Shown here: piece by piece, positions 1,473-39,897 of the stretch
Layout: each line of letters begins with the position of its first letter
Position numbering within the stretch: the stretch's first letter is position 1
NCBI GenBank assembly: GCA_032718475.1
Contig: JAUCBJ010000521.1
Coordinates: forward strand, 1 to 43,487
DNA from: Nemertoderma westbladi
Lineage: Eukaryota; Animalia; Xenacoelomorpha
Length of the DNA stretch: 43,487 bases
Direction of reading: 5' to 3'
Made by a program: the position numbers and the translations under genes
The notes under the pieces: model-generated
Seen by the model: the letters and a program-made list of their open reading frames with translations, nothing else
Databases searched by the model: none
Told to the model about the DNA's origin: nothing

Positions 1473-1540
1473 ACTATTAACTACTAACTACTAGTAGTTT
1501 AACTACTAAACTACTAACTACTAACTCAACTACTAACTAC
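1473..1540. repeat. Imperfect (ACTACTA)n simple repeat
   Basis: Repeated ctactaa/actacta units seen directly. Confidence 0.6.
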
Positions 1541-1626
1541 CCAGTCTAAAGACAGGTTCGTTATAATGTGGTCTAACAACAGCAAATATTCGACTAAAAT
1601 AATTCACTTTTCGTAAAATACACCAA

Positions 1627-6841: not shown

Positions 6842-6845
6842 ACTA

Positions 6846-14204: not shown

Positions 14205-14759
14205 TCGCTCCATGAAAACAGGATATTATCGTGCATAAAATATACGGTTTTCACCAATACTAAATCAAATTATGGAATACTTGGGACGTACTTACATATT
14301 TACAAATTAAATCTCTACAATTACCTCTACATAATAATTCGATACAAAAATAATTACAAATTCAAACTTTACGTATTTAAGGCTTTATTAAGTAAGTACA
14401 ATATAAATATAATTTAAATTCACCAAAATAAATCTATTGCATCTCAAATATTGCATAAATTCAAACAATCACAAATACTAATACTACTTAAATATAAAAC
14501 AAATTGCATAAGTTCGGATAATTTCAAATAAATCACAAGAAAGGCTCACAAGTCTTCCGTCTGCTCTTGCCTTCTATTTACTGTAAATACAAATACTGCT
14601 TCTTTATAAAATATAAATTGCATAATATTCAAACAATAAATTGCGTAAGTTTGGAATGACTACAAATATAGCACTTTCTAAATATAAATCTTTACTAAAT
14701 TGCATAAGTTTAGAATAATACTGCATAAGTTTAGAATAATATAAACTCCTTTTACATCT

Positions 14760-15121: not shown

Positions 15122-16276
15122 TTAACGCTTAGTGGATCGAGCCCTGCCGCGTCCTCGAAAACTGTGTATCGGCGATTTAGCTCGTGATATGGGACTTGTG
15201 GGGCGAGCCACTGGTTTACTTTGGACGTTGAGAGACGGTACAACCGTTTCCTCACATATTCGTCCCTTAGTCATCCCAAATCCTCGTCCAATCCCTCGTG
15301 ACCGATCTGTTGTATCTACCGCTGGTAAAACGTCTGGGAACGCACGGAAAGCGGACGACGCAGACCCAATAGAAGCTTGCGCCCCCTTTTGATCAGCTGG
15401 TATATGTCCCGATCCTCCTTGCGGTTCTCTGGGAAGCGAAACCGTATCCCGAGTAATTCGAATAGTCAGTTCGTATCCCTTTCGTTCTTCAACGTTGATA
15501 GTTTTCTTTAACTGTTGGCCCACTTTCTGGACCCTTATGATCCTACCCTGTCCGTCCTCCCGAGGGTGACGTGCAGACGGCGCGACCGGAGTAGCTGGTA
15601 TGTTGGTCGCCTCTAGGACCTCCTCTTCCTCGAATACGCTCGCTCGTATACGTTTATGGTAGAACGCGGCTCGGTACGCCCATGCGACGGTTAACCAAGC
15701 TCCCTTGTTCCGCTTTTCCGTTCGGAACCGATCAAATTCACCATATGTGATACGATTGACTACTTTCTGGAAGTTCCATGTATTCTTATTGTCAGGGTGT
15801 ATCTGTAACAAATATTCGCGCACAACTCGGAATCCACTATCATGAGGCAAAATATCAACTACCTCGATGAGTTCGTCGTATTGTGGCATAGCGGAGATAT
15901 ATCCTTCCGACATCATAGTTTGAGGATTTACCGCCCAAAATCCAAGATGCGCTCTCATCGGGAACCGTCTTCTTTGCGCTGCTACATGTTCGTCAGCCAA
16001 ATCTTCCCACTCATCAAATAGTTTTCGCACGAGTTTTACAGATTCGTGTTCGTAAGGTATATCTCTCAGTTGGCATTCAGATGCTCGATGTCCCTTTATA
16101 TTGCAGTAAGTGCATTGAGCCATAAATCTCCAGCAAGTATAAAATGTATGGGACCCTTGATCTCCACACCATCCACAGATTAGTTGAGTTGTAGTAATGT
16201 GCTTTCCACTGCACTTTGTCGAATGATGTCCAGCGACACCACATTTACCACACATCGTATTAGCAGGGTACCACAC
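15122..16276 (-). CDS. Accessory protein with three CCHC zinc knuckles and a basic RG/RS-rich C-terminus (possibly the frameshifted C-terminus of the upstream ORF)
   Basis: CGKCGVAGHHSTKC, CGWCGDQGSHTFYTC, CTYCNIKGHRASEC; ends RGRGRARSTKR. Frame open from 16309; first ATG at 16255. Confidence 0.75.
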   Translation of the reverse strand: MWYPANTMCGKCGVAGHHSTKCSGKHITTTQLICGWCGDQGSHTFYTCWRFMAQCTYCNIKGHRASECQLRDIPYEHESVKLVRKLFDEWEDLADEHVAAQRRRFPMRAHLGFWAVNPQTMMSEGYISAMPQYDELIEVVDILPHDSGFRVVREYLLQIHPDNKNTWNFQKVVNRITYGEFDRFRTEKRNKGAWLTVAWAYRAAFYHKRIRASVFEEEEVLEATNIPATPVAPSARHPREDGQGRIIRVQKVGQQLKKTINVEERKGYELTIRITRDTVSLPREPQGGSGHIPADQKGAQASIGSASSAFRAFPDVLPAVDTTDRSRGIGRGFGMTKGRICEETVVPSLNVQSKPVARPTSPISRAKSPIHSFRGRGRARSTKR

Positions 16277-16287
16277 TCGCTCATATA

Positions 16288-18846
16288 TTAGATCGCCAAT
16301 CGGATCAGACTATAACAGATCAAACTATAATCATAATCGTCTGGATCAATAGGTTGGTATGTTTCAGAAGGTTGTATGCAAACTACAGCATCTGTTGCTT
16401 CTAATTGTCGAATCTCCGTCTGAGATTTCTTCGGGAGGTTCCTTTCAATCTCAAGAAGTTCCTCTAAAGGATCATCGATGGCCGTCGTTACTTCGAAATC
16501 ATCACCTAAGTGACCGATAGGCGCACGCGTCTGCCGTGATTCGTCCGTAAGCTCCACGATACGTTCTCCTTCATAGGGTAACAATGTAAACATAGATGGT
16601 CTTTCGATAAGAGATCCCGCACAGCGAAGATACACGTCTCGAAATATACTAAATCCTGCTCGAGTGAAGGCATTACACTGAGCGTCGGAATTGTAGAAGG
16701 GTTCGAGAAACCGTCTAAACACATCGGTATGAATTCTCCCTTCCGCGTAGAATGTATGATCTTCTCCGAGGCAAAGTGGATGTATTTTAAGAGTCCGAGA
16801 CACAATGTCAGCGACTAAGCAAACATTCACTGATGACTCTATCGCTAAATAATATTGTAGTAACGCTCTTGGAGGTGAAGTAATAGCCCAATATACGCAT
16901 CCTCTCCATTTGAGCTGTGATTCAAACTCATTTATATCTGGAGTATCACCTTCTCCATACGTTTCGATATACTTTGTTCTTTTACTTTCCTTATAATCCC
17001 AATTAAACATCAAGTAGGAAATATATTCAGTTCCGGTTTTCTGAGTATCATACTCACGGAAGTATCCTTGTTCTATAGACCACAGTATAAGAGGTCGAGT
17101 GTCGACGTAAGGTGTCGGTAGTCTGTCGTCACTGTCCGACATGCCGGCGAAGTCGCTAATTAAGTCCTCTCTTACTCCTGATCCAATCTTTACAACAGTT
17201 TTATCTAAAATCATATTTCTCACTGTCTTTGGTAACATTCTAGCATCGATATTGCAAGCCTGGTCCATTTTCTTTACTATATTAGTGATGAACTGGTGCC
17301 GCTTTGTAGTTCCTGGAGGTATCGGCATTCGCTTGTCGCTCCTTTGTCTACTGAAAACGTGCAAAACTCCGTCTGCCGCTCTAATTTGTATAGTCTTGGA
17401 GGTTAGACTCTGCTGATGGCTGCCGCCCTCGTTATCATAAAACATGTAACCGTTTTCCTGAAACGATCTAAACGTCCTATTCCATTCGTCCAATAATTCT
17501 TCCGAAGGTTGCCAAATCTTCTCTATGTCTTTCTCGTCCTCGAAACGAATGACTTTACCTTGCCAGTCTGCAGCGATATCTGTATCCGACTCAAAGGTTC
17601 CTGTTCCAATCCATAAGCGAATTGTTTTGGTTAAATATCCTTTCAGGTTACTCGGAGCTATATCAGCGCCAGCTCTATCCAGTTCCCTAAAGTCTTGAAT
17701 ATGAGGCGGAACATTATGCACAACCTTTTGCGTAATATGTCTACGTAAATCGTATATCTTAACCATATCGCTTAGAACAACTGCAGGAAGAAACTCTAAG
17801 TTCGAAATGATTTCCGGATGATCCACAATAGGTATTTCATACGTTGTATCTTGTCGAACTGGTATACTAATAGGGAAATTGAGTGTCGTACTCAATGGTT
17901 TCGTAGTTGAAGTACTATACGGTTGCATTTCTCTTGTCCTTTCCGGGGATGCAATCTGTAGTCTCTGAATAACGTTTTGAGCAAAGTTTATACTCTCGAA
18001 AACTTCCGGTGTCATCTCCTTAGCTGAAGTTTGATTGTGTGACGTCCAATGGTAAGGTAGGATCGCGAGTCTTCCGCCCCATTCTTCCATCTCACCTTTC
18101 TCGAAAGCCTTGTAGGCTCTGTATAGGCTGAGAGCTTCTTTCTTTTCGCGGGTTGACTGAGTCGCCTCGTCCAGCGTAAGTTCGAATACATCGGGTTCAA
18201 CAACCTTAGGTGGGTAAACGACAATTTCTCCCGCCTTTGGTCCAGTCATAGCGAATGAATGATATGGATTCGATAAAGGATACCCTCCTTCCTGGTAGCG
18301 TAGTTGTTGATGGTTCGAACACCTCGCCAATATCGGTTCGGGATTTTCCTTATTCAAACGCATCGGAATCGCATTTCGTTGTTCGCGCATACAAGATCCG
18401 CATTGATAATAAAGTTTATAAACTGAAAATGCTTCCTTTGTTTCTCTATCGTCCCCTCGAGTTCGTCTGTAAAGATGCATTCCATCGAATTCATCACGTA
18501 CCGCAGGCATAGGTTCGTGTGCTTTTAGGTATTGCATAGTATGATACAAACGACTAATTTCGGTATCGGGATCTTCGCTAATATCTCCCGTATCACATAA
18601 AGCGTCGTACGGGTAAAGTTCATTGAAGGTTTTGCGTAAACTTTCGATTCTTTCATTTAACGCGTTTTGCCTTCTCTTTATTACATTCGAGTCATATTTC
18701 GTCTTTGCGAGTTTCGCTGTACTTTCTGATAAATCTTTTATACCAAATATAGTGTAATCCTTAGCTCCAAATCGTTCGAATGGCGCTGCTGCTTCCTCTT
18801 GGATATCATATCCCCATCTCGGCTCTCCTTGTATCCCTTTCGCCAT
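16288..18846 (-). CDS. Accessory 852-aa protein with a putative DEDDy 3'-5' exonuclease domain (WRN/EXD/Mut-7-like)
   Basis: Intact ATG-started ORF. Motifs in order: MFYDNEG (ExoI), TIQIRA, LPKTVRNMILDKTVVKIGSGVREDL (ExoII), YVDT, W...P...QYYLAIES (ExoIII-like, D replaced by E). N-terminal CGSC...CSNH. Confidence 0.72.
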   Translation of the reverse strand: MAKGIQGEPRWGYDIQEEAAAPFERFGAKDYTIFGIKDLSESTAKLAKTKYDSNVIKRRQNALNERIESLRKTFNELYPYDALCDTGDISEDPDTEISRLYHTMQYLKAHEPMPAVRDEFDGMHLYRRTRGDDRETKEAFSVYKLYYQCGSCMREQRNAIPMRLNKENPEPILARCSNHQQLRYQEGGYPLSNPYHSFAMTGPKAGEIVVYPPKVVEPDVFELTLDEATQSTREKKEALSLYRAYKAFEKGEMEEWGGRLAILPYHWTSHNQTSAKEMTPEVFESINFAQNVIQRLQIASPERTREMQPYSTSTTKPLSTTLNFPISIPVRQDTTYEIPIVDHPEIISNLEFLPAVVLSDMVKIYDLRRHITQKVVHNVPPHIQDFRELDRAGADIAPSNLKGYLTKTIRLWIGTGTFESDTDIAADWQGKVIRFEDEKDIEKIWQPSEELLDEWNRTFRSFQENGYMFYDNEGGSHQQSLTSKTIQIRAADGVLHVFSRQRSDKRMPIPPGTTKRHQFITNIVKKMDQACNIDARMLPKTVRNMILDKTVVKIGSGVREDLISDFAGMSDSDDRLPTPYVDTRPLILWSIEQGYFREYDTQKTGTEYISYLMFNWDYKESKRTKYIETYGEGDTPDINEFESQLKWRGCVYWAITSPPRALLQYYLAIESSVNVCLVADIVSRTLKIHPLCLGEDHTFYAEGRIHTDVFRRFLEPFYNSDAQCNAFTRAGFSIFRDVYLRCAGSLIERPSMFTLLPYEGERIVELTDESRQTRAPIGHLGDDFEVTTAIDDPLEELLEIERNLPKKSQTEIRQLEATDAVVCIQPSETYQPIDPDDYDYSLICYSLIRLAI

Positions 18847-18874
18847 TATTAGAGGTAATGGTTACATAATCATA

Positions 18875-19505: not shown

Positions 19506-21373
19506 CTATTTACTAACATTTGTTGGAGACTTGTAATCTCCAGACTCGTTTCGCGTCTCTTCAAGAAGTACGAGACGTTGTGTCGGTCTGTCTACTGTAC
19601 GACCGTCAATTGTCCGTACAGTCACAGTTCTTGTCACTCCATCCATAGATGGATGTGTGTCTAGAATTACACCTGTTATCCAGAAGCGTCTTTTTAGATT
19701 CACTTCTGCTAATAGCACATGATCTCCCGCTCTTAAAGCGCGAGTATTGTTGTACCAATTTGTTCTGGCAGAAATAGAGGGCAAATAGTGATTTTGCCAT
19801 ATTTCCCAGAATTTGTTAGCTAGTAGTTGCGTGATTTTCCACGCTTTTCTACCGTAGCTGTCGCCTTCTATTGGAATAGAAATAGGCATTAATGTAGTCG
19901 GTGCCTGCATAAGCAGGTGTGCCGGTGTCAAAGCAAACTGGGATTGTTTGTCATCGGGTACTAATACTATTGTTCTAGTATTTAGTATTGCCTCGATTTC
20001 AACAAACAATGTTGTCAGTTGGTCGTCTGTCAAGATGTGGTTTACTGGAATTACCTTTGCCATGGCTGTTTTTATAGATCTAATCAATCTCTCCCATACT
20101 CCGCCTCTCCAAGGACTGTCTGGAGGATTAAACTTCCAAACAATCTTGTAAGGACGTAGTTCGTTTGAGATTTGATCATGATCTAATTTCTTAAAGGCTC
20201 TAGCAATTTCATTTCGAGCACCAACAAAGTTTGTACCTTGGTCTGAGTGCAAGCATTTTACTAGTCCGCGTCTAGCGATAAATCGCCGCAATGCTAGTAT
20301 AAACGCGTTGGTGGAAAGATCCATCACACGTTCAATATGAACTGCCCTACTGGACATACATGTGAAAATCAGTCCCCAGCGTTTCACTAGTATACGTCCA
20401 CGTTTCATATGTATGGGACCAAAGCAGTCAATTCCAGTCTCTGTAAAAGGTGGTCTGAATGCTTGAAGTTGTGCTTGTGGAAGTTCACTCATTTCTTGGG
20501 TACCTATTCTAGAGTGTACCTTTTTACAAATAATACACGTACGTGTCACTGAACTTAACGCTTTACTGGGTCTAATTAATACAAATCTTGTACATAAGTA
20601 GGAAAGACAGTGATGTCTTCCAGCGTGTTTCAGATGTAAATGTGCGTCCAGTATCATTGCACGTTGTAATTCGTGATGTTGCGGTATTATTATCGGGTAC
20701 CTAAAATTTGTGTTAAAGTCAATGTTTTGAAGCCGAGATTTATGACAAATTAAGCCATTATAAATTATCGGACTCCAACTCAATATTGGTGACGACTTGA
20801 TTGGTTGACCTTGACTTATAGATGTGAATTCGCGCGCGAAATATCGCAATTGATAATGGCGAATTAATTTAATTTCTCACCTGTCAATCTCGGTCAATGT
20901 GAGTCGACATGTAAAGTCGCGTTTGCCTTTGACGTATTGTACAAAACGTACAATCCACGCTAATTTTCGGCACGCGTTGGTCCAAGAATCTGTTAGGTTT
21001 ACAATACGGTCGACGTAAGTATTTGTGACGTCATCAGGTAAGTCAATGGAGAATTTGGAAGGTTTTGATTTACTAGATGGGCCCACGAGTCCGCCGGTAG
21101 GTATTCCCTTGTTGACTGTTGATCCGTCCGGGTCTACGAGTAATTTGTCCTTCTTTGTTTTCTTACCTTGATTGTCAGTACTTTGTAAGTCGATCGTTAA
21201 TGGTGGTTTGAACTCTATGGGATCACTGGGTTTCGGTAAACTTATTTTTCTGCCGATATTAATCCCAGGTCTCACCGTAGGTTGTAAGGTTGGTATGTCT
21301 CTTGAGCGTAAAGTAACACCTGTATTTACATTTGCGTAGGTACTACCCACATCTGTAATACATGAGGTTTCAC
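19506..21373 (-). pseudogene. pol: Pol C-terminal part: linker plus integrase, with in-frame TGA at 20877-20879
   Basis: HHCC (AHLHLKHAG...CIICKK), DDE core (GIDCFGP, SDQGTNF, GGVWERLI) and BEL-type C-terminal domain (W..GVILDTHPSMDGVTRTVTVRT...RPTQRL). ORFs 20877.. and 19506.. share one frame. Confidence 0.92.
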
Positions 21374-22614
21374 TGTGCTTATGGTTACTCAAGAGTGTTC
21401 GCTTGTGTACTTTTGGGCTCCTCCCCGAGGCGCACCCACGAGGCGGACACCTTTCCACCACCCTTGGGGCCAGTCCGACAGATGTTATTATCAGACCGGG
21501 CCGGAGGGTGGCCTGATGCTTCCCGGGTTCTGTTTTCGGTCCCCCGATCACACCAGCACAGCTCGTCGAACGTGTAGCCAGATGGGCGGCTACTGTCAAC
21601 TTACTGTGGCCTGACTGTACATTGAGCCAACTCAAAGTATAACAAAGAGTCAACCGGCAGGTGGACCAGTCGATAGCGATCGAGCACCAAGGACGCCCTT
21701 GGGCCTAACCGACGGTCTTGTCCCATGTGGGCTTGCGCTACCCAACATGGAATTTTGACTCGTTTTCACCTGCCTCGCCGGCAGTATTTAAAAAACAATA
21801 CTGTCTGTAGCTCAAAAGCTACTGAACAAGTAACCACTTACCAGTCACTGTACACGTGTACTCAACAGATGTTCACGAAATCAAGTACACAACGGTAAGC
21901 ACAAAATCGAACACATACCATGCACACACAGAGACATAATCGGGAAAGACAAAATCGGGGTCAAAATTGAGAGGACAAATTGTATCGACCAACCACCAAG
22001 TCGAGAGTACCTTATTTTACCGACAGGGTAAAATAACTTTGTGTGCACAAAGTTATTTTACCGACAGGGTAAAATAACTTTGTGTGCACAAAGTATGCTG
22101 GGGTGCAGTAAAGTATGGTCCTACTAATACCAGCGGCGTCTGGTCCAACTGGCAAGGGTTCCCATACCCACTCGCAGTGGCCACACATACAATCACGTGT
22201 ACTCACGTACCCACAGCAACAGAAAACTCAAGACCCGACGGTTTATTCCAATGCCACCAAAGACCAAGTCAGCTGAACATGGAGACAATAACATATAGTA
22301 TCAAAAAAAAAAAAAAACAGCTGACGGTCAATGGAACCATCCAAGCCCCAAGCAAACTGCCACTGATCGCCCACATACAAAACATAGTTCACGCCACATG
22401 AACCACAAATCACGCCATGCCACCACCCCTACTGTGTACAGGACTGGCAGTACGGCAACAGGCCGACTAGGCGATACCACGGCACCATGGCAATTCATGG
22501 TTCGTTAGACACGAGGGCCTTCAGTGACTCCCTAGCACTATACTACCAATTTTAACGTGCCCCCAGCCCCTCACGAGTCTGCCGCCGCCTGTTAAACTCA
22601 CCCCTATAGAGACC
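21374..22614. mobile_element. Unclassified 1.24-kb insertion in pol
   Basis: Breaks the pol frame between RNase H and integrase, with a change in strand composition. Flanked by tcac at 21370-21373 and 22615-22618. Internal 41-bp palindromic duplication and an A15 run. Boundaries are inferred. Confidence 0.55.
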
Positions 22615-25600
22615 TCACCTCTTTGGGTAAGTTTGGTAGTTTGTCAATACAAGGCCGCTCCAATAGGGAAACTGTGGCTTTACTATGTGTCGCTACATTA
22701 CTAATGTCTGGTAGAACATTTTGTGACATGTCTGGTAAAATGTTTCGCGGAACATCCGGCGAAATATCTAGTGACATGTCTGGCAAAACGTCTGGTTGAC
22801 CGTCTAGTAACGCGTCTGGTTGTTTGTCATTAGAAGGCTGCTCCAATAGAGAAACTGCGGCTTTACTATTTGTCAATATGTTACTAGTGTCTGGTAGAAC
22901 ATTTTGTGACATGTCTGGTAAAATGTTTCGCGGAACATCCGGCGAAATATCTAGTGACATGTCTGGCAAAACGTCTGGTTGGCTGTCTAGTAACATGTCT
23001 GGTTGAGCGTCTGGCGATATGTCTGGTTGAGAAAGGCTCGCAAGTCTTCCTGCCCTAACTTTGTGAGTTATATTCTTCCATTTCGCCTTTGGTTTCTTCT
23101 TAAGTTTCGCCGTTGTCTTTTTCTTTGCTTTACCTTTCTTGGGTTTTTTAATTTCGGCGTCCTTAGGGATAGTATTAGACTTGTTATCGTAAAGTGGTGG
23201 CCAATGTTGTACTGATCTTTGCAAGAATTGTGGTCCGTGTTGCCAAAATTTCTTGTTTTCCGGTTTACAGAATTCCTCAGGCATCATTCCTCGTGACGCA
23301 ATATCAGCTGGATTTTGTGGTCCGGGACAATGTCGCCAATCTTCCTTTATTGAACGGTCTAGAATTTCTGCACGACGGTTAGCTACGAATGTCTTGAATT
23401 CAAGTGTATCGTTGTTTATGTAAAATAAAACCAACGTCGCGTCAGTCCAATAAAATATCTGTAAACTTGACTGTAATTCCGTCTGTATAAGGTTCACGAT
23501 TGTGGTTGACAGGGTTGCGGCTTGTAGCTCAGCGCGTGGTGTCGTCATATACTTAGTAGGCATGGTCTTAGCCTTAGAAGTAATGAGCGAAACATCAAAC
23601 TCGTCTGAGTCTACTTGTCTGCGCAAATACGCTGCCACACCAAAGCCGTTGTCACTGGCGTCTGAAAAACAATGTAATTCTAAGTTGTCAGGAAATGTCG
23701 TCTGTAATGGAAAGTACACCCGGGGTATGGAATAATCCTCTAGCGAAGATAATTGTGCCTCCCAAGTCTTCCATAAGTCCACTTGTTCGGATGAGATCGG
23801 TTCGTCCCATGTCAGTCCATCTTTCCAAATACTGCGCATGTAAATTCGTGCTTGCAGTATTATTGGGCTGATGAAACCTAATGGATCGAACAGTCTACTT
23901 AGTTTCGACAAGCAAGACCTCTTTGTCAGAGAATCCCCTTCAGCGTCCAGTTTTACTTTCACTCGAAAGTTGTCTGTGTTCGGGTCCCAAAATAGTCCCA
24001 ACACCTTGGTCGTCGGCAGTGGTTCGAACTCTAAGTCAATATCACCACTCCCACGTTCAGTCGTTCCGAATGAATCTACCAATTCGGCACTGTTTGAGGC
24101 GAACTTGGTGAGGTTAAAACCTCCGCCTGCTAAACAGTCCCGTAATTGATGTGCTACGGTGATAGCACGTTCTACTGTATCACAACTTTGTAACCCATCG
24201 TCTACGTAAAAGTCTCGTTCTACGATCTCGATTATCTCTGGGTCATATATATGTTTCTGATCCCTAGCGGTCTGTTTTAGGGCGTACATAGTGCAGTTTG
24301 GGCTGTCCCTGGCACCGAAAACGCGAACTTGCATTTGGTAAGTCGCCGGTGGCTGACTTAAGTCTCCATCCGGGTACCAGAGGAACCTCAAACTGTCTCT
24401 GTCTCGCTCTAACGCTCGCACTTGGTGAAACATCGCTTCTACGTCACAAGTAAATGCTACTTGGCGCTGACGGAAGCGCATAATCACCCCCATGAGATAA
24501 TTATTCATGTTTGGTCCATCCATCAACTCACTGTTGAGAGACATTCCTTCAAACAGGGCCGCGCAGTCGTTAACTACGCGTACTTTATCAGGTTTGTCGG
24601 GGTGTCTCACATAGTGATGTGGCAAGTAGTATGTCTGGTCTGTCACAATCTCTGGGTTAGTCATCCTGATAGCGTACCCTTTTGTCAAATACGTCTCCAT
24701 CTGAGTATTGTACTGCAGATGGGCTTTCTCGTTCTTTAATAGACGTTGTCGTATTGAGTGTAGACGTCTTAAGGCTAGCGGATAATTATTGATAAGTTTA
24801 GGGCTTTGGCTACGCCATAGCATCCCTACCTCATAATGTCCGTCTTTCGTCTGGCGGATAGTATCTTCCATGATCTTCAAAGATTGTTTCTCTTGTTCCG
24901 ACATACACGGTTCATAACTACCGGGTTCTGCTGTATCTTGTTCTAACCACCTGATAGTTTTCTCTGTTAACTCTTTGTCCAGTGCAGCTTGTTCCACTTG
25001 ATGGTTTCTTAACGCGTCATCATCGACGGGCGTTGTTGAAGTTATTGGTGTAGATAGACTCGCAAGCCTTCCGGCGTTATCATCTGTCGTCGATGGAACC
25101 TCTGCCTGACTCGTCTTCTTCTCATGCTCTATACTAACCGTGTGGATTGGCTGCTCTTTGTGACTTATCATATTTGCTACACACGTCGTACTCGTAAAGT
25201 TGTCGTGTTTCGTCGAACGTAGTGTAGTGTAGTCTATGTCAGGTGAAAAGGAATGAATCGAAGTTGTAGTTAGTAAACTACATGTACTTTGTACATCGTC
25301 TTCCTCATCACTTATATCCAGTGTGCGCACAGGCGCTCGAGTATACCACCCTATCGGAGTTCTACAGGCGTAAGCGTTTCCCGCTACAACTACCGATGGT
25401 CTGGTTTCCCACACTTGATGTAGGTTGAATTGGTCCGTCCCGATCAGCATTGCTACTGACCTATAGTTGACAGGACATTCAGGTACACCGAGGTGTCTGA
25501 AATACTTACGGTCTTCTAAAGATTGCTCTGGGACTGGACCTAGTAGGTTACTAAAGTCCTTTGTGGCCGCAAAAGTCAAATCCTTAAAAGGTAACAAAGA

Positions 25601-28600
25601 CCTCTCCTTCTCGCTATGTTGCGATTTTGGAAGAAGAGTGTCCAAGTTTAACTTAACTCGTGTCACTGGTATTGCACGTTGTCCATGCATACTACTTACG
25701 GTGTAACTGACATTCTTACCTTGTCGGAGATCCGTCACAACATCAGCTACCTTCTCATCCACATAGCTGTGAGATGAGGCTGAATCCAAGATAGCGTAGA
25801 TCCGTTTGCTCCCCTTTGTGCCCGTAATCTTGACAGGAATTATACTAAACCCCTTTAGTTGATCAGGCGTCAGAAGCGCAATCGATGGTTGTTCGTCTCC
25901 AGTATCTAAGTAAACGTCGTCGTCTTCCGACTCTTTATCCGACGATCCTGATTGTTCCGAGAAGCAATCTCTAATGTGCGTCACGAATGTCGGTGTTGTT
26001 TTCGACTCTCTACCTTTATATGCTGTGTTGCATCTTGCTGCCGCTTCTGGGTGTTCCCTGGTGAAGCGTTTGGTCGGCGTATGGCTGTCTGTATGGAGCA
26101 AGCCGTCGTGGTTGCGTCCACAGTAAGGACAGGTGTCAGTATTTGGGCAGTCCTTACGGACGTGTCCATGTAGCGTACACCGCCAACAAGAATCCAAAGG
26201 CCGTATTTGCAGTCGTCGTTCCTCCGAGTTCAATTCGCGGAATAGTCGACATCCCTTTAAGTTGTGGCTAGTATGTCGCTTACCAATTCGTTCGCAATAT
26301 TGGCAACCGCTGAAGTCTGTGCTCAGTTGCTGTTGGGTCTGTTTGGTTCCAATGGGTGCGGATACCTTATTACCGTCCGAAAATTGTCGGGTGTCGGTCG
26401 ATGTTGCGTAGGTAACCGTCTTTGTAGATGTCGTTGATGGTTTCTGTCTGTTTGATGAAGGTAGTGTGATTCCTTCCGCCACAATATGTTGGTCCGTGTA
26501 GTTCGAACGCGTCTCGACTACTGCCTCTCTGGATATCAGTAAGTAGACGTCTTCCAACTTCAAGAATCCGCCTCTCTCTTCTCGCTGATATTCTATCTTT
26601 CGCCACTCCCGACGAAGTCGATGGTGCAATCTTCCTATTATTTTCAATAGGACTGTCGGAGTGTTCGCGTAGTCAAGTTGTCCAATCGAACGTAGTGTAG
26701 TAATGGCGTTCTTAATCTCGTCAGCTAATTTCAGTAAGTCAACGGGTTTTGTAATAGCCCCTCCCTTACAGAGTTCTTCTATCACTGACTTAGCCATACT
26801 TACGGTGCCTCCGTAAATCGATGTTAAGCGATCGTACGCTAATTCGAAGGCATCTGGTACACCAACAAAAGTCTCCGCTAGACGTTTCGGTTCTCCCGAT
26901 AATGTTTGGAGCAGGTAGTTGAATTTCTCTCTCGATGTAAAAGCACACACAGCGATCTGAGATTCGATGTAGTCTACAAAGGTGTGCCAATGTTTAGAGT
27001 TCCCGGAAAACTTAGGTGGTTGTTGCACCGGTAGTCCTTGTCTAGCTGCGAATTTCGCTATTTCTTCTGCAACGTTCAAAGTTTCGCGTCCTTGGTTGGT
27101 GATCTGGTTGGTGTTCTCTCTTCTAGGCGCTTTTCTTTGATACGATGTGTTGGTCGATGGTATTTGTCTTTGCGGAACTTTTGGATTTCTATTGTGCTCG
27201 AATTCGGAATTTCTCGAACTGTCAGTGTGAACTTCCTCCAAGCGTTCCTCTATCTGGGCCAACTTGTTGACAACTGGCCTCAGAATGTCGGCAAATTGTT
27301 GAGTACTGATTGCGTCCGTTGGTTGTAACGCCTTTTGTGTTGGTGTATTCTGTGGAGGATTGTCAATAAATGAATTATCCGAACGCTCACGTTTACATTC
27401 GTCGGCCGCTCCTGTTCTAAATACCTCGCGTTCCGGGTAATCCGACTCGCTTGAAGTACTACTGTCGCCTGGATACGGTGGACGACGTGCTCGTGTCCGT
27501 TGCGTCGTTCGAATTCTAACATTCCGTTTCGGAACATCGTCTACTGGTCTCCGTTGTTCGGTAGGCTCGCGGGTCTTCCTCGAAGTCGTAGATTGCGATG
27601 TAAACTGGTTAAACGGTCGCGTATCCACTGGTCTCCGTTGTTCGGTAGGCTCGCAGGTCTTCCTCGAAGTCGTAGATTGCGATGTAAACTGATTAAACGG
27701 TCGCGTATCCACTGGTCTCCGTTGTTCGGTAGGCTCGCAGGTCTTCCTCGAAGTCGTAGATTGCGATGTAAACTGGTTAAACGGTGGTCGAGTGACAGCG
27801 TTTGAATCTAAAGGCCTTGTAGGCCTAAACGTCATTGGGTATGTGTAGTGCGTAACGGGTTTTGGTGTCGAAGGTGGACTCACCTGTTTTGTTGTTATCA
27901 GTGCAGGTCCGGTCAATAAACTACTACAATCTGTAATCGGTGGGTTACTTACCTTGACTTTCAGAATAGGCGACGACATTGCTCTTGGCGGTACGAACTT
28001 GTCCGGAATAATAAACCTGTGTTCCGTCGCACCATGGATAGGAGAAATATTACTACTACCCGCAATCGAAACAGGTTCCTTAGTCGTAACTGGTGCAAAC
28101 ATAGGAGTTACTTGAGGGAATCTTTGACATAAGTCTTTAACTAGTTGTCTTTCTCGCCCAGGTGCCCCTACACTTCCTTCCTTCATTCGTTCCTGAATTT
28201 GGCGGTGCCTTACCTCTATCTGGTCCAAATCATGTCCGTCGTTAGATCTCATCGATCGATCGCGGGCTAGAAGATCCAGATTTTCCTTGGCTTCGGCTAG
28301 TTCTCTCGCCTTCCTTTCGAGTTCGAAATGAAGTTTAACTTCCTTCTCGCGTTGTTCCGTCTGTTGTTGTTGCGCCTCGAACTCCGCTTGTCGTATAGCT
28401 GATTGAGCCTTTATTTGCCGTTTTTTCAACTCGGCTCGTGCTTCCGAAGCTCGCCTTTGTTCGTCTAATGCTGCCGCTGCCGCTTGTCGTTCCAACTCAA
28501 CTGCTGCCGCTTGTCGTTCTAACTCAGCCGCTGCCGCTAACGCTGCCGCTGCCGCTTGTCGTTCCAACTCAGCTGCTGCCGCTTGTCGTTCCAACTCGGC

Positions 28601-29644
28601 TGCTGCCGCTCGTTGCGCTAACTCAGCTGCCGCTGTTCTTTGTGCTATTTCTAGCTCCAACCTTTCCATCTCAGCCGCTTCCAACTCGGCTTGTTCTTGC
28701 AGATGAGAGATTCTCGCAACATTTGCAACGCGTAGCTTCTCTTCCTCTACAGCTGCTTGTACAGTTAACAATTGAGTTTGTTCTTCCATTTCTCGTTGTT
28801 GTCTGTGGTACAGTTGTTGCTGTCTAGAAATTTCTGACGTCACTATACTTACCTCGCCAATTTCGCTGCGAATACTCACTAACGATTGGTCCAGTATTTC
28901 CGGTGCCGATTCGATTTGTACGGGTAAAGTTCCCCTCGTATATTCCGGCACGGTTTCCAAATCGCCGACGTCTTCGCCGCACATACGTAAGTGATCCGTC
29001 AGATGTTTCAGTTGTCCATCCAGTCGGTACAGTTCCTGTTCTTCCTCGGGCTGTAATAACTCGTCGGAAACCGACTCACCTAGCAACTGGTCCGCTTGTT
29101 CCTGTTGTATCTGTCTAACGGTCGTCTTAAACTGAATCAGTTTCTCTCTAGCGATCATTAGTTTCTCGAGGATTCTAAACTGTGTGTCCATATCCTGTCT
29201 CTGTCTAGCTAGATCTTGTAGACCTATTAGATTATCTACGGACTTATGTACTCTATTCTGTACTCTCACCTGTAGAGTGTAGAACTCGAATCGAGACATC
29301 GGAGCGGTCAACTCGTCTAATATGCGTTGGCCTTCTCCAATACTCCTAGTAATATGCGCCATGTAACCTCCGACGCTTCTAACCACACTTTCTGTGCTTC
29401 CTACTGAACTTATCATGTCCGTTTCCCTATATCTAGGTTGCGGGACCGTTAGAAAATCCTCGGTCCTGCCGTCGCCTCGTACTACGGCATCCGGTACTCC
29501 CGTTGGATGTACTGGTGACGCGCACGGTGTAGGTTCGGTAGGCTCACGAGTCTTCCCCTGTGGTTCTTCCGCTTCTGACTTATCCGCGTCACATGAGTCA
29601 TAGTCGGTTTGTGTATTCTTCGTATAGTCTTGTTTGTCACTCAT
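22604..29644 (-). CDS. gag-pol: BEL/Pao Gag-PR-RT-RNase H polyprotein, truncated by the insertion
   Basis: Gag PKFSGNSKHWHTF...EKFNYLLQTLSGEP; three Cys/His clusters; protease AILDSASSHSYV; RT YLPHHYV, KVRVVNDC, DVEAMFHQV, FGARDSP, FYVDD; RNase H LHCFSDAS, PRAELQAA, WTDA, NPADIASRG. Confidence 0.95.
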   Translation of the reverse strand: MSDKQDYTKNTQTDYDSCDADKSEAEEPQGKTREPTEPTPCASPVHPTGVPDAVVRGDGRTEDFLTVPQPRYRETDMISSVGSTESVVRSVGGYMAHITRSIGEGQRILDELTAPMSRFEFYTLQVRVQNRVHKSVDNLIGLQDLARQRQDMDTQFRILEKLMIAREKLIQFKTTVRQIQQEQADQLLGESVSDELLQPEEEQELYRLDGQLKHLTDHLRMCGEDVGDLETVPEYTRGTLPVQIESAPEILDQSLVSIRSEIGEVSIVTSEISRQQQLYHRQQREMEEQTQLLTVQAAVEEEKLRVANVARISHLQEQAELEAAEMERLELEIAQRTAAAELAQRAAAAELERQAAAAELERQAAAAALAAAAELERQAAAVELERQAAAAALDEQRRASEARAELKKRQIKAQSAIRQAEFEAQQQQTEQREKEVKLHFELERKARELAEAKENLDLLARDRSMRSNDGHDLDQIEVRHRQIQERMKEGSVGAPGRERQLVKDLCQRFPQVTPMFAPVTTKEPVSIAGSSNISPIHGATEHRFIIPDKFVPPRAMSSPILKVKVSNPPITDCSSLLTGPALITTKQVSPPSTPKPVTHYTYPMTFRPTRPLDSNAVTRPPFNQFTSQSTTSRKTCEPTEQRRPVDTRPFNQFTSQSTTSRKTCEPTEQRRPVDTRPFNQFTSQSTTSRKTREPTEQRRPVDDVPKRNVRIRTTQRTRARRPPYPGDSSTSSESDYPEREVFRTGAADECKRERSDNSFIDNPPQNTPTQKALQPTDAISTQQFADILRPVVNKLAQIEERLEEVHTDSSRNSEFEHNRNPKVPQRQIPSTNTSYQRKAPRRENTNQITNQGRETLNVAEEIAKFAARQGLPVQQPPKFSGNSKHWHTFVDYIESQIAVCAFTSREKFNYLLQTLSGEPKRLAETFVGVPDAFELAYDRLTSIYGGTVSMAKSVIEELCKGGAITKPVDLLKLADEIKNAITTLRSIGQLDYANTPTVLLKIIGRLHHRLRREWRKIEYQREERGGFLKLEDVYLLISREAVVETRSNYTDQHIVAEGITLPSSNRQKPSTTSTKTVTYATSTDTRQFSDGNKVSAPIGTKQTQQQLSTDFSGCQYCERIGKRHTSHNLKGCRLFRELNSEERRLQIRPLDSCWRCTLHGHVRKDCPNTDTCPYCGRNHDGLLHTDSHTPTKRFTREHPEAAARCNTAYKGRESKTTPTFVTHIRDCFSEQSGSSDKESEDDDVYLDTGDEQPSIALLTPDQLKGFSIIPVKITGTKGSKRIYAILDSASSHSYVDEKVADVVTDLRQGKNVSYTVSSMHGQRAIPVTRVKLNLDTLLPKSQHSEKERSLLPFKDLTFAATKDFSNLLGPVPEQSLEDRKYFRHLGVPECPVNYRSVAMLIGTDQFNLHQVWETRPSVVVAGNAYACRTPIGWYTRAPVRTLDISDEEDDVQSTCSLLTTTSIHSFSPDIDYTTLRSTKHDNFTSTTCVANMISHKEQPIHTVSIEHEKKTSQAEVPSTTDDNAGRLASLSTPITSTTPVDDDALRNHQVEQAALDKELTEKTIRWLEQDTAEPGSYEPCMSEQEKQSLKIMEDTIRQTKDGHYEVGMLWRSQSPKLINNYPLALRRLHSIRQRLLKNEKAHLQYNTQMETYLTKGYAIRMTNPEIVTDQTYYLPHHYVRHPDKPDKVRVVNDCAALFEGMSLNSELMDGPNMNNYLMGVIMRFRQRQVAFTCDVEAMFHQVRALERDRDSLRFLWYPDGDLSQPPATYQMQVRVFGARDSPNCTMYALKQTARDQKHIYDPEIIEIVERDFYVDDGLQSCDTVERAITVAHQLRDCLAGGGFNLTKFASNSAELVDSFGTTERGSGDIDLEFEPLPTTKVLGLFWDPNTDNFRVKVKLDAEGDSLTKRSCLSKLSRLFDPLGFISPIILQARIYMRSIWKDGLTWDEPISSEQVDLWKTWEAQLSSLEDYSIPRVYFPLQTTFPDNLELHCFSDASDNGFGVAAYLRRQVDSDEFDVSLITSKAKTMPTKYMTTPRAELQAATLSTTIVNLIQTELQSSLQIFYWTDATLVLFYINNDTLEFKTFVANRRAEILDRSIKEDWRHCPGPQNPADIASRGMMPEEFCKPENKKFWQHGPQFLQRSVQHWPPLYDNKSNTIPKDAEIKKPKKGKAKKKTTAKLKKKPKAKWKNITHKVRAGRLASLSQPDISPDAQPDMLLDSQPDVLPDMSLDISPDVPRNILPDMSQNVLPDTSNILTNSKAAVSLLEQPSNDKQPDALLDGQPDVLPDMSLDISPDVPRNILPDMSQNVLPDISNVATHSKATVSLLERPCIDKLPNLPKEVRSL
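22640..23005. repeat. 183-bp (61-aa) in-frame duplication in the RNase H-integrase linker
   Basis: QPDxLLDxQPDVLPDMSLDISPDVPRNILPDMSQNVLPD occurs twice; offset 22731 to 22914. Confidence 0.85.
27543..27785. repeat. 84-bp (28-aa) tandem repeat x3 in gag
   Basis: PFNQFTSQSTTSRKTxEPTEQRRPVD three times. Confidence 0.9.
28468..28636. repeat. About 30-bp AAAAELERQ repeats in the gag coiled-coil region
   Basis: Seen in DNA and translation. Confidence 0.8.
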
Positions 29645-29687
29645 TTCGGTAGTTGCAAGTCAAGTAAAGTGAGTGTCAAAGTATCAA

Positions 29688-29860: not shown

Positions 29861-30439
29861 AATCAGATAACGATATACGTTATCAAAAGGTAGATTAAAT
29901 ACAATAATACGGACTAATTCAGCAATAAACAAAGAAATCGTACGGAATGCATAAATACTTGAGACAGTGGAACCCACAATAATTTTAACTAATACGGTAA
30001 TGCCTAACTTATTTATGCAACTTTTCGAACTCACCCCCTCCAATGATTCTCCAGAAAAACAGATTCCCAGATACAAACCGGACGTGAACCTTTCCGTTTC
30101 CAGCGTTGCGGACGAAGTGCGATTTTCCCAACCAAAATTGTTGAGTTATCTATCTCCCAAACTTGCTAAACACGGTCTTGCTCTCGTTACAGTCTAGAAA
30201 TGAGCTCTGAATACTGAAAAACAAAAGAGTTAGGTTTTACTTTTACGAAAATTTTGTACCGGTACAATATGGTATTTAAACCCTTTTAAACACCGGTATT
30301 CAATTCCAAAATTTTTACACGCGTTTCAAATCAAAATTTTGTTTCAAAATATCAGCACTTAGCTAATCAAATATAAATTTTTACCTCAAAATACAAAATT
30401 TTCAAATAATTTTGTTCTACTGAACCGTAGTTCAGAAGA

Positions 30440-30452
30440 TTCATATTCCTAC
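30440..30452 (-). other. Non-tRNA primer-binding site candidate (GTAGGAATATGAA)
   Basis: Abuts the 5' LTR end, lacks TGG, and is the exact reverse complement of LTR 31494-31482 (13345-13333 in the 3' LTR). Confidence 0.65.
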
Positions 30453-31919
30453 TATTCGAAGAGACAGTAACAAATACACGAATCCTGCAATATCATACTA
30501 TAGAGTCTGTGAATCAAAGCATAAATCCGACCTTCTCACCAAAACAGTAAACTCTAAGTAGGCAAACCTATTGCAGTATCGGTCTCTTATAACCGGTGAG
30601 GCAGAAAACAGTCTACGAACGGACAAACTTCGATAAAACAAAATCCCGCGCAGCGAATCCTAAAATCGGGCTGACTCACTGACGGACTAAAGGCGCTCGT
30701 ACACTTTGCCGCGGTGTGATTTATATGATGAAAAAGCGCTAGCTACAAATATAACCAGCGGGAAAATCAGCAGTGCGAACAAATTATTTCATATATTTTG
30801 AGGTGTAAATAATTCCTAAACGCGCGTGTGTTTTTAATTCATAGGTCAAAATTGATTTTTATCCTTCATATACTCTCATTTACTGGGTCCGGCGTTTATT
30901 TTACAAATATTCTAATATTTTGGTAACTTGTAGGTCCAATACTTACAAATGACAAGGCTCCTTCCCCCTTTGGTGTATTTCCAGGACTCAAATTCAGGCA
31001 TAGGGTTAATACTACGCCCAGAATTCGGCAATTTTATCTACCAGGTCCCTAATACTAAGAAGAAATGTGTTAGTTTACTACTGTAGGCGTACGGTTACAA
31101 ATAGCTATCCTGGCTCTTATCTGGAATTTTAGTCACCTAGGTAGGCTGGGTAACTTCCTATCAGGACGTTGGCGGGGACACGGTAGGTGTTAGTATCCCT
31201 AATAGCCTTAATTTATTTTCGCCTAGCAATAAACTGCCCTACCGCCTGAACGGTATAATCTCAATTCAGAGAAAACACAGCAATCCTCTCCTGGCCTACA
31301 AGTTCCAACGCAAGCAATAAACACCGTGTACTGCCGACAAGCCACCAACGCACCTATACCTGACAATGAGTTAGGCGTACAGTTTTGCTGCACCCTACCA
31401 ATGTACATGCCGGGTAATGGTGTGCCTGTGTCCTATCTGCGTACGGGTATCTCTGTCTAACTTTCCTTTTCTCCTTCCCCCGTAGGAATATGAAGGGGTT
31501 CTGCTGGTCTTCCAAGAATTGGGACAATACAGTTCTTAATTTAAATTTTTGGCGTACAGTGTGTCGCTACTCCTACCGTCGATCTTAGGTCTTACACTTA
31601 GGTAGCGAAGCATCGAACACTGTCTAACCTTCAGGCGATGGGCGAATAACTCGAATAGATATTGTGGGCGGTCTCCTGTTCACATTCCCCGATGTTCCCG
31701 TTCACTGCTGCGGCCCGATGTCTAGCCGGCCATCCTGTTCTTTAGGGGCGTTCACCGTGGTGAAGCATAATAAAACAGATAGGAAAGGGCAGATATAACA
31801 AGTATTTATAATATACATATTCTATATACATAAACGTAACAAGAAACTAATAGATAACTAATCATAGATAGAAGAAGAATAGTATTGGATTGATTGATAA
31901 CTAATGAACGAAATCGCAC

Positions 31920-31928
31920 CTTATATAG
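31920..31928 (-). promoter_or_regulatory. Candidate TATA box of the LTR promoter (CTATATAAG; 13774-13782 in the 3' LTR)
   Basis: Consensus-like TATA followed about 20-30 nt later by Inr-like TCATT/TTAGTT/TCAATC. Confidence 0.45.
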
Positions 31929-32146
31929 CAAATTTGTGCTGCAATCAATCGAGAAAATTCTCGATTGTTCTATAAGTTCTAATGGGTTTTTAAAGATAAC
32001 TATTGGTCCAGCGAATATATAACTTGCACGACATTGGTTACAATCTAATAACTACAGTCCCATTGGTTAATCTAGGTACAGACAAATGCAATTTAATTTG
32101 TAGCGGTCAATTTAAATGAGTTGAAATTCTGTACAAAAAATAATTC

Positions 32147-32221
32147 GCACCTACAAGGATTCGAACTCAATACCTACTACATATATAATTTCCAACACTC
32201 TACCGACTGAGCTACTGAACC
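32147..32221 (-). promoter_or_regulatory. tRNA-derived A-box/B-box module in 5' LTR
   Basis: Copy of 14001-14075 with one substitution. Confidence 0.65.
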
Positions 32222-32350
32222 ACTTGAATAATCATCGTACAAATAGATATAGTAAATACAAATGAGGACTTAATGTAATCTTTTAGCAAAGTTAATTCGA
32301 ATAAAATAAAATTTTGAAAATCCACGGCATTTAGAGAATATAATTCTATA

Positions 32351-32683
32351 ATATATACTTCGTGAAGTTCTGTGATCTATACTTCGTAAAGTTCTGTGAT
32401 GTATATATACTTCGTGAAGTTCTTTGATATGTACTTCGTGAAGCTTTGTGATGTATATCGTGACGTTCTGTGATGTATACTTCGTGAAGTTATGTGATGT
32501 ATAGTTCGTGAAGTTTGGAAATGTATACTTAGTGAAGTTCGGTTATGTTATAGTTCGTGAAGTTCGGTGATGTAAACTTACAGTAGTGAAGTTCGGTGAT
32601 GTATAGTTCGTGAAGTTCCGTGATGTAGGCCTATTATATATAGTTCGTGAAGTTTGGTGATGTATAGTTAGTGAAGTTCGGTT
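32351..32683. repeat. 24-28-bp minisatellite, segment 3 (degenerating edge)
   Basis: Same core, drifting to atagttcgtgaagttcggtgatg. Confidence 0.9.
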
Positions 32684-35900: not shown

Positions 35901-37957
35901 AAGCTACTACTATTGATGTTCCAATCAATCTTACAATCTCATTGGTAACTTCTACTGCCACACGATGTGACACTTACTCCTGTGGTGGTATAAATCTTTC
36001 AGTCAACAACGATATGACTGGTCGAAAACATCTCACAATAACTTAATCAAATACAAATAAGAAATACTTTCAGAGATAACAAAGATGTTGGACAGCATGT
36101 CTAATGACCAAACATGGAAGAGTACTGACATAGATCTCATCACCAACAAGCTACAACATATCATTACATCAGCTGCAAATAAATACATTAATAATAATAA
36201 TAATAATAATATATATTTATTTATATAGCGCCTTTCTAGGCATATTTCAAGGCGCTTTTGAATAAAAATTAACAATACGGTAAAAAACAGTAAAAACATG
36301 TTGACATAAAAACATATATACAATGAGTTAAAATGAGTTAAAAAGGCGCATCATGGTACTCGCGTTGAAATAAAACAGTTTTCAGTTTCGATTTAAAAGT
36401 TGTCAATGTAGTGGCTGATCGCACGTCATAAGGTAGTGAGTTCCAAACACGTGGCCCGGCAATGGAGAATGCGCGCCTGCCATAGTTCTCTAGCGAGTAC
36501 CGAGGGGTTACCAAAAGATTACCCGCTTGAGCGTAATTCTCTACCGGGTGTGTATGGCGTCAATAAGTCGCTGAGATAGTGCGGTGCCAAGCCATTCAGA
36601 CACTTATAGCACAACATTGCCAGTTTGAATTCCACCCGTCTAATAATAGGGAGCCAATGAAGTCGTTTTAGAACGGGAGTTATGAGTTCTCGCTTCTTGA
36701 CACTTTCTAATAGTCGCGCGGCAGAGTTTTGTACATATTGCAGCGTTTTCATATATTTGGCAGGCAATCCATAATAAAGAGAATTATTATTATCCAATTT
36801 ACTTGTAATGAAAGCATGTATTAAGATTTCTAAGTCGGGTTTGCAGAGATATCGCTTGATTTTAGATAGGTTCCGAAGATGGTAGAACGAGTCTCGTACA
36901 ACATTGGAGATTTGTTTTTTAAAGGTAAGGTGCGAGTCCATGATGAAACCTATATTTCGTGCGTGATCGCTGTTAGATATAAAATCATTTCCAATATTAA
37001 CTTTGATGGGGGAAACTTGGTCACCAAATCGAGACTGCAGTAAAAGTACCTCGGTTTTATCTGTATTCATTTTTAAAAAATGGTCCTTCATCCAAATTCT
37101 TACATCTCTGAGGCAATTTTCTGTAATGTTTACAGCATCCACATAATTTATAGGTTTGAATGATATGTACAACTGCGTGTCGTCAGCATACAAATGGAGA
37201 GAAAGACCGTATTTTCTGATTACCTGTGATAGTGAACGAGTATATATCGAAAAAAGTAGTGGACCAAGCACTGATCCTTGGGGTAATCCAAACTTAATAT
37301 CTTGGTGCTTTGAATAAGACTCCCCAATCCTGACTCCTTGTGTTCGTCCATGGAGATAAGATGTGAACCAGTCCAATGCCGTCCCACGAACCCCAATACA
37401 ATTATCCATGATATATATTAGTTTATTGTGATCGACAGTGTCAAATGCGGCACTTAAATCTAATAATATCAGAAGCACTGTTGAGCCACCATCGATTTCA
37501 CGCAATATATCGTTGTTGACCTTCAATAAAGCAGTTTCAGTGCCATGGAACTGCCGGTAGGCACTCTGCATTGGCTCATATAAACCATGTAGATTCATAT
37601 GTGTAATTAGCTGCTGTGCTACCGCCCTCTCAACTAGCTTCGATATAAATAATAAGTTAGATAATGGTCGAAAATTCTTAAATATTTCGGGATCCATGCT
37701 GACTTTCTTTAAAACCGGTGTGAGTATAGCCTCCTTTAGTAAATAGGGTACAGTCGCAGTTGTTATAGATAGATTTATTATCAATGTTATGATTGGCAGA
37801 AGCAGATCTATTGATAATTTGAGAACTCGTGTCGGCAATGGGTCATGGGGGCTAGATTTCGATTTCGACTCTTTTATAAGAGTAGCAGTTTCATCCATTG
37901 ACACCTTACGAAAGTCTGTGAGTATTTCAGGCGGAGTTGCATCATTGCACATAGATG

Positions 37958-38587
37958 GGTCGCCAGCATCAATGCCAGGGTCGCCCATAGTAACCGTCGA
38001 CTCAGGAGGGTCGCCCACAGTAACCGACGACTCGGGAGGGTCGCCCGTAGCAACCGTCAACTCGCCCGGGTCGCCCGTAGCAACCGTCGACTTGGGAGGG
38101 TCGCCCATAGCAACCATCGACTCGGGAGGGTCGCCCGTAGCAACCATCGACTCGGGAGGGTCGCCCGCAGCAACCGTCGACTCGGGAGGGTCGCCCGTAG
38201 CAACCATCGGCTCGGGAGGGTCGCCCATAGCAACCATCGACTCGGGAGGGTCGCCCGTAGCAACCATCGACTCGGGAGGGTCGCCCGTAGCAACCATCGA
38301 CTCGGGAGGGTCGCCCGTAGCAACCATCGACTCGGGAGGGTCGCCCGTAGCAACCGTCGACTCGGGAGGGTCGCCCGTAGCAACCATCGACTCGGGAGGG
38401 TCGCCCGTAGCAACCATCGACTCGGGAGGGTCGCCCGTAGCAACCGTCGACTCGGGAGGGTCGCCCATAGCAACCATCGACTCGGGAGGGTCGCCCGTAG
38501 CAACCATCGACTCGGGAGGGTCGCCCGTAGCAACCGTCGACTCGGGAGGGTCGCCCGTAGCAACAGTCGACTCGGGAGGGTCGCCCA
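37958..38587. repeat. 30-bp in-frame minisatellite (GDPPESxVAT, about 20 copies) inside L2 ORF2
   Basis: Unit gggtcgcccgtagcaaccatcgactcggga. Confidence 0.95.
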
Positions 38588-39897
38588 ATATATCATCGCG
38601 GATATTTGATATTTTATTTTCAAAGAAATTTATGAATGCATTTGCCAACAATTTATCATCATCATGTGATGGGAGAACGTTTTTATTATTGCGGTGTAGA
38701 ATTTTATTAATAACTGTGAAAAGCGTCTTTTGATCACCAGAATTCGTTTTTATGATGTTGCTATAGTACTCTTCCTTGGCAGCGACAATAATTTCAGAGA
38801 CCACATTACATTGTTGACGATATGCAATACAATCTATTGCAAGTTTTGACTTCCGATATCTGCGTTCTAGTTGGCGTCGTTTTCTTTTTTCAATTGTAAT
38901 GTCATTAGTATACCATTTAGCATTAGGGTGTTTAATGATAGTCTTTTCCACTACTGGGGCATGATTGTTAAATATATTACTCAGAGTATCATTGTATAAA
39001 TCGGTGAGCTCGGTAATGTTCATCTCCGAGTGTGATTCCTCTGCACAAAGAGGTGACCGCGCCACGTCACCCAAGAACATATCCAAATCAAATTTTTTCA
39101 TGTTCCTGAAAGAAATCTTTCCGATTTGTACTTCAGGTTTGTTAATGTTAATGTTGAAATATATCGCAAAGTGGTCAGATAGACCGATATTTCGCACACT
39201 TACATTCTTAATAATGTGGTCGTCATCTGTCGTAGTTAGAACCAGATCTAAAGTATGACCTTTTATGTGTGTTGGTTCATGGACCCATTGTTGGAGCCCA
39301 AAACAGTTTATTACATCCAAGAATTCGCCAGCTTCTTTATCATTCAATACATCAACATGGAAATTAAAATCTCCCAAGATGACTAAACGTCCAGGTAGAA
39401 TAATTATACATTGTAGAAGTTCTGCAAATTCTTCAAAAAACAATGAAGCTGTGAACCCGTTGGGCACGTTCGGTAAATAATTAGCAGTCTAATTACAGTC
39501 CCGCAATGCACAAATGTTAGTTCAGTGTAATCGAAAGTGAAGTAGTAAAACTTACATTCGTGTTGTTTTAGTTGAAGGATTTCTTTCGATATGCAAGCAA
39601 CACCACCCCCTGGTATTACACCTCTAGGTTTGTGCTTCAGTGTATATCCCATGGGACAGATTTCTCCAATGGCAATATTGTCGCTAAAATTTCCTTTAAG
39701 CCAGGCCTCAGTGACAGCCATTATATCTATATTGCCATCAACAATATAATCATTTAATACTGCAGCTTTATTATTTATAGAACGCGCATTATATAAGCAA
39801 ATACTTAACAGAGTTGGATCAAGTACAGCAAACTCTTTTGGGTCCGTAATAGTGGAAGAAGCTGTGGGTAGTCTGTGGGGAGCTGTGGGGATAACAT

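Follow-up and report, generated by a model that had tools for sequence, protein, structure and literature searches.

Self-priming of reverse transcription is established for the retrotransposons Tf1 and Tf2 of Schizosaccharomyces pombe and has been proposed for Tj1, Tcn1 and TAR (excerpts of PMC7175516, PMC4600332, PMC6317226 and PMC5341516). Tf1 RNA binds its PBS through its 11 initial bases, and RNase H cleaves between bases 11 and 12 (excerpts of PMC7175516 and PMC4600332). In the Tf1/sushi group of Ty3/gypsy, no tRNA is used, and the PBS is complementary to a short stretch of the element RNA that derives from the LTR. Self-priming has also been predicted from sequence outside the yeast models, for the TAR lineage (Houba, Osr-1) of Ty1/copia and for Tcn1 chromoviruses; these are plant or fungal elements of other superfamilies, and the excerpted text describes no internal or spliced primer for them (PMC6317226). 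For BEL/Pao elements, the ICTV profile of Belpaoviridae gives an 18-nt tRNA-Arg/Gly PBS, LTRs of 0.2–1.2 kb and genomes of 4.2–10 kb, and describes replication as poorly understood (PMC8742986).

The element described here lies in a 43,487-nt stretch of DNA from the xenacoelomorph Nemertoderma westbladi (assembly GCA_032718475.1, contig JAUCBJ010000521.1, positions 1 to 43,487; hereafter the window). Self-comparison of the window delimited a young element of 20,047 bp on the minus strand, bounded by two direct repeats, the 5' LTR (30453–32350, 1898 bp, ending in TA...TA rather than TG...CA) and the 3' LTR (12304–14204, minus strand), which are 99.2% identical over 1903 columns. Of its relatives, L044 has TG...TA termini with a confirmed 5-bp duplication. 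The element is flanked by a 5-bp target-site duplication (TATAT, 32351–32355, partner at 12299–12303) inside a ~26-bp satellite. Because the empty site implied by these boundaries occurs 41 times in the surrounding satellite and the alternative with an extra TA occurs 0 times, and because of the 5-bp duplication, the LTR end at 30453 is sound. A shorter LTR end, with a 2–3-nt spacer before the PBS, was ruled out by the same count. A short, purine-rich PPT position precedes the 3' LTR (14205–14211, minus strand), with the same boundary in a contig of sequencing run X6. The satellite hosting the element occupies 6291–6844, 8710–12303 and 32351–32682; another tandem array, with a 45-bp unit and about 4 kb long, lies at 1476–5525, and endonuclease/RT ORFs of non-LTR (LINE) type lie elsewhere in the window (36519–39488 and 6846–7736, both minus strand).

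The gag-pol ORF (22604–29659, minus strand, 2351 aa) encodes DUF1759, an RT with YVDD and a Pao Peptidase_A17/RNase H region, and its stop precedes a separate integrase ORF (19506–20876, minus strand; weak Integrase_H2C2, DUF5641). The domain matches include PF05380 (E 1e-42), PF03564 and PF18701, and the top homologues have the same domain set. This order of gag DUF1759, Pao-type RT/RNase H region and integrase with DUF5641, the direct LTRs and the 5-bp target duplication are those of Belpaoviridae, and on these features the element is classed as BEL/Pao. The domain search found no chromodomain in the element, the protein feature of Ty3/gypsy chromoviruses. It differs from the ICTV description in its 1.9-kb LTRs, TA ends, 20-kb length, two extra ORFs and absence of the 18-nt tRNA-Arg/Gly PBS, TGG being missing after the LTR. 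The tRNA PBS is a descriptive trait only, since BEL/Pao elements are filed by their proteins and 14/15 relatives (below) also have no tRNA-type PBS. The RT/RNase H region is 44% identical to that of the best homologues, the named ones of which come from molluscs, echinoderms and cnidarians, and the element forms a long branch without supported sister in both RT trees (the second with 41 rows, midpoint-rooted).

Between gag-pol and integrase the coding sequence is interrupted (20877–22603, minus strand) by a stop (22606–22604), ~1.2 kb of non-coding-looking DNA and a further stop (20879–20877). The non-coding-looking stretch (22603–21400, minus strand), which lies between RNase H and integrase and contains a T-run and short palindromic repeats (22012–22094), may be an insertion or an intron. 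With pol broken in this way, the copy is probably non-autonomous. Two further ORFs come after the integrase. The smaller (15122–16309, minus strand, 395 aa) has weak zinc-knuckle matches (E 0.023). The larger (16288–18861, minus strand, 857 aa) gave no Pfam match, 0 matches among 1.84 billion representative sequences and no meaningful PDB match, and single-sequence structure models were unusable (pLDDT 30.5 and 33.6). By language-model features, as a lead only, it is exonuclease-like: residues 420–750 scored 0.92 to 3'-5' exonuclease clusters (24/30 Atlas matches; PF01612 on 50% of members). DEDD-like motifs were noted in it by eye only. The nematode BEL element Cer7 has an exonuclease ORF, and as a speculative candidate the product of the 857-aa ORF might trim a primer.

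Immediately after the 5' LTR, at offset 0 from its end, the minus strand reads GTAGGAATATGAA (30452–30440), a 13-nt PBS position without TGG. Its exact complement, the putative self-primer, lies inside the LTR (31482–31494, minus strand) with no intron in it, and a further copy is present in the 3' LTR (13345–13333). The first-pass annotation had reported this TGG-less site and its LTR complement, and both coordinates proved exact. As it also stated, pairing halts precisely at the LTR boundary on the primer 3' side, a boundary now backed by the target duplication; pairing does not extend on the other side either. A PBS complementary to an LTR segment, with pairing that ends at the LTR boundary, is a feature that the element has in common with the Tf1/sushi group. 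From base composition, 5.4e-5 exact matches are expected in the 1898-nt LTR, and the 13-nt complement was reached at 1 of 16,218 internal start positions (12 nt at two, one of them the same site shifted by 1), in agreement with the annotation's view that such a 13-mer is unlikely by chance. We conclude that a chance origin of the PBS/LTR match is excluded. A longer spliced primer in the window LTR was rejected, as the best candidate reached only 9 nt versus the unspliced 13-mer. The putative primer 3' end abuts a G-run and purine-only tract (31461–31481, minus strand), the letters of which vary among copies while purine richness is kept. By eye, the primer 3' end could be drawn in a C-UACG-G tetraloop hairpin with the following G-run (31486–31478, minus strand); the overall fold z-score around it was not significant.

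Copies of the element's own family were compared in contigs from four of seven sequencing runs over 30000–32500 and from two over 31400–31600, and the family was found to be high-copy and variable. In the two runs, no substitution was listed at 31473–31508, with 13 varied positions at 31453–31472 and 7 at 31509–31523, all listed changes being at least 31 bases from a contig end and nearer ones seemingly hidden. Among diverged contigs, just two, X3 records 10 and 14, appear to cover the 13-mer in full. Several diverged contigs cease aligning at 31496, two bases beyond the 13-mer, a subfamily (depth 60 in X1, 282 in X3) fails to align over 31453–31537, and one loose-end contig of X1 has a base changed within the 13-mer. 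The comparison is suggestive, not decisive, of the 13-mer being a conserved island.

More distant relatives were collected by an RT alignment search; metagenome contigs contributed 79 loci (best 80 of 579 confirmed), and genome contigs another 12. Repeats flanked the RT in 37 of the 79; 18 were inspected and 14 with a definable LTR 3' end were kept, L026, L032, L038 and L045 being dropped where the repeat ran to the contig end or into tandem repeats. The LTR end was taken from its family for L035, and was placed 7 nt inside the BLAST end for L064 and 1 nt inside for L011, L039 and L050. At 12 of the 14 loci, a PBS at offset 0–4 had a 10–15-nt complement in the locus's own LTR that beat all 40 control positions (spliced in 11, unspliced in L064). 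L039 has a complement of 10 nt in the 5' LTR and 7 nt in the 3' LTR, and L078 has a TGG site and no LTR complement. Among the 12 genome-contig loci, L080 has an unspliced 11-nt complement, identical LTRs and a target duplication. In total, 14/15 loci and 11/12 distinct PBS families have a self-complementary PBS. The genome-contig loci (L080–L091) are animal-type BEL/Pao elements although their contigs are assigned to bacterial MAGs, which probably reflects contamination by host DNA.

In most relatives the PBS complement is present only across a GTAAG…AG junction, whereas the window element has it unspliced. All 11 spliced matches of at least 10 nt have GTAAG donors, though the search demanded GT..AG only. 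In L067 (1–214 and 6935–7265), a 117-nt GT-AG intron of the 3' LTR is cleanly missing from the 5' LTR, an intron loss caught in the act. Matching of PBS and LTR in diverged relatives was among the checks proposed in the first-pass annotation, and the outcome favoured its reading: PBS letters differ between families, and each PBS fits its own LTR. This includes families that are sisters on the RT tree (L054/L010, L064/L041, L083/L006/L080 and L011/L037/L051/L029/L013). When PBSs and LTRs were swapped between families, 8 of 11 rows had the own LTR as sole best match, 2 had it level with close kin, and in 1 another LTR scored higher. The primer 3' end is AC in 9/11 families and in the window element, and pairing ends 0–5 nt from the LTR end across families.

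Further loci, for which the LTR end had to be guessed from the pattern, form a weaker set: L001, L004, L006, L009, L010, L013, L014, L029, L032, L038, L041, L045, L046, L048, L054/L056, L065, L073 and L083, to which L086 was added by eye; L049 has a TGG site and L026 a mismatched PBS, and the junction was absent or no call was made at the remaining loci. A blind scan of 78 loci, which provided leads only, returned spurious matches (e.g. L002, L015, L027) and missed L004 and L046. In viral contigs, none of 59 pattern matches was confirmed. The window element shares the missing TGG, the register, the primer length and the AC end with the relatives, but common descent of the mechanism is inferred; its kinship with the self-complementary families has no phylogenetic support, the branch being long and unplaced. 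The sequence itself shows that PBS and LTR 13-mer are complementary, that the pairing is in register with the LTR end, that TGG is absent and that many relatives repeat this layout in other letters. We consider it likely that the element primes minus-strand DNA synthesis with this 13-nt stretch of its RNA rather than with a tRNA.

The position of this putative primer in the RNA depends on the transcription start. The first-pass annotation had allowed a Tf1-like start at the 13-mer, citing a YYANWYY initiator, and had noted a TATA box ~430 nt upstream that would make the 13-mer internal. The box is real, the sole TATAWAAR of the LTR (31920–31927, minus strand), 433 nt upstream of the 13-mer, and predicts a start at about 31896–31891. 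The initiator match is also real (31493) and is uninformative, being one of 22 in the LTR; were it used, +1 would be 31491 and 3 of the 13 paired bases would precede the transcript. The tRNA-independent self-priming that the annotation proposed draws good support from the comparison of relatives; the Tf1-like start at the 13-mer is weakly supported, given 22 initiator-like matches and a TATA box 433 nt away. The alternative it had raised, an internal 13-mer, is the likelier reading and has parallels: the primer lies 133–136 nt below a TATA box in L013, L017 and L051, and at some 220 nt in L083, another element with a long LTR and offset 0. One family does look Tf1-like, the primer in L001/L008 beginning 31 nt below TATA. 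Since internal primers look common among relatives, we moderately favour an internal primer in the window element, with transcription beginning ~30 nt past the 31927 TATA box. AATAAA occurs at 31212–31217 (minus strand) and again at 30900–30895; both are downstream of the primer, which would leave enough of R to allow strand transfer.

Predicted folding bears on whether the LTR–PBS helix serves priming at all. A competing hairpin was predicted (30436–30486, minus strand; z -2.28) in which U5 (about 30482–30467) pairs imperfectly with the PBS. The primer–PBS duplex was predicted at -16.6 kcal/mol and the U5–PBS hairpin at -14 to -15; the long-range helix dominated in 4/10 boundary choices and the hairpin in 6/10, including both folds begun at the TATA-predicted start. 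The hairpin would suit a different function, in which the LTR–PBS helix was selected as a regulatory or structural switch (PBS masking, dimerisation, packaging or a splicing check) and priming occurs by other means, e.g. from the U5–PBS hairpin; for GalEa elements, which lack a PBS, priming from a hairpin has been proposed (excerpt of PMC6934838). However, across families the pairing ends within 0–5 nt of the LTR end and the primers have AC at the 3' end in common, which is the register expected of a primer. A strong-stop DNA primed from the U5 hairpin would be about 14 nt long, too short for strand transfer, and no alternative primer is visible. We regard a purely regulatory helix as unlikely.

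Priming at the PBS by a host tRNA fragment or small RNA, with the LTR 13-mer as a decoy or captured copy, would fit the tRNA-Arg/Gly priming given for the family by ICTV (PMC8742986) and the half-tRNA priming without TGG known in Ty1/copia (excerpt of PMC6317226). A fixed host RNA would not track PBS letters that vary over 11 families and fit each family's own LTR, mostly only after splicing; TGG is absent and the tRNA-like segment of the LTR does not contain the complement. We consider this explanation very improbable. That segment, in U3 (32225–32150, minus strand) and in the matching part of the 3' LTR, has A-box/B-box look-alikes and is perhaps a SINE head or Pol III promoter; neither ARAGORN (0 genes) nor Rfam (two sub-threshold matches) called it. 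The least credible possibility, that the match is a one-off, functionless short inverted duplication made by template switching, could appeal to there being a single full copy that is defective in pol, but the same arrangement recurs in 14/15 relatives and the 13-mer persists in diverged copies with remodelled flanks.

For priming by the element's own RNA, the following steps can be envisaged. Transcription would start about 30 nt below TATA, placing the 13-mer ~400 nt inside the RNA, and the 13-mer would pair with the PBS about 1030 nt downstream, displacing the U5–PBS hairpin. Cleavage after 31482 by a nuclease, which by analogy to Tf1 would be the RNase H of the element, would provide a free 3' end, from which RT would copy U5 and the remaining R before jumping to the 3' R. 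In every cycle the PBS would be written anew when the plus strand is copied from the primer, which would account for PBS and primer changing together. A primer with a long 5' extension would need a second cut or trimming to keep the PBS at 10–15 nt. In most relatives, the primer is predicted to be joined up when an LTR intron is spliced out, and the window element would carry it ready-made.

The element, then, probably works like Tf1-type self-priming elements and yet is not a member of Tf1/sushi. It belongs to a different superfamily, its primer is probably internal, at the distances given above from the predicted start and from the PBS, and the primers of most BEL/Pao relatives are predicted to be made by splicing. 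No literature report of self-priming or splice-built primers in BEL/Pao was found, including in excerpts of PMC3601003 and PMC6934838, with subscription journals, Repbase, GyDB and supplements outside the scope of the search. Term searches of BEL/Pao surveys showed that priming is not discussed in them: in PMC3118150 and PMC6238403 the words primer and tRNA have 0 occurrences, PMC554778 mentions PCR primers only and PMC9094657 none. Tf1-type self-priming is known; what is proposed here, judged from sequence, is a probably internal and, in relatives, usually splice-built self-primer in BEL/Pao. A wider proposal, for which we see an even chance, is that much of aquatic-animal BEL/Pao has swapped the tRNA for a self-primer, possibly hundreds of bases inside a capped transcript and usually assembled by the spliceosome; the giant element would be the intron-free form, in which the U5 hairpin may gate the primer, and it may encode a 3'-5' exonuclease that trims the ends of primer or strong-stop DNA.

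If correct, these findings would add one more independent origin of self-priming. They would also mean that the primer is not necessarily the 5' end of the RNA and can be built by splicing, so that the initiation of reverse transcription would be tied to RNA processing by the host, and a splice-built primer would license reverse transcription on spliced RNA only. Pipelines that demand a tRNA PBS would then miss or misjudge many BEL/Pao elements, and the stated replication mode of the whole family, given as tRNA-primed by ICTV, would change.
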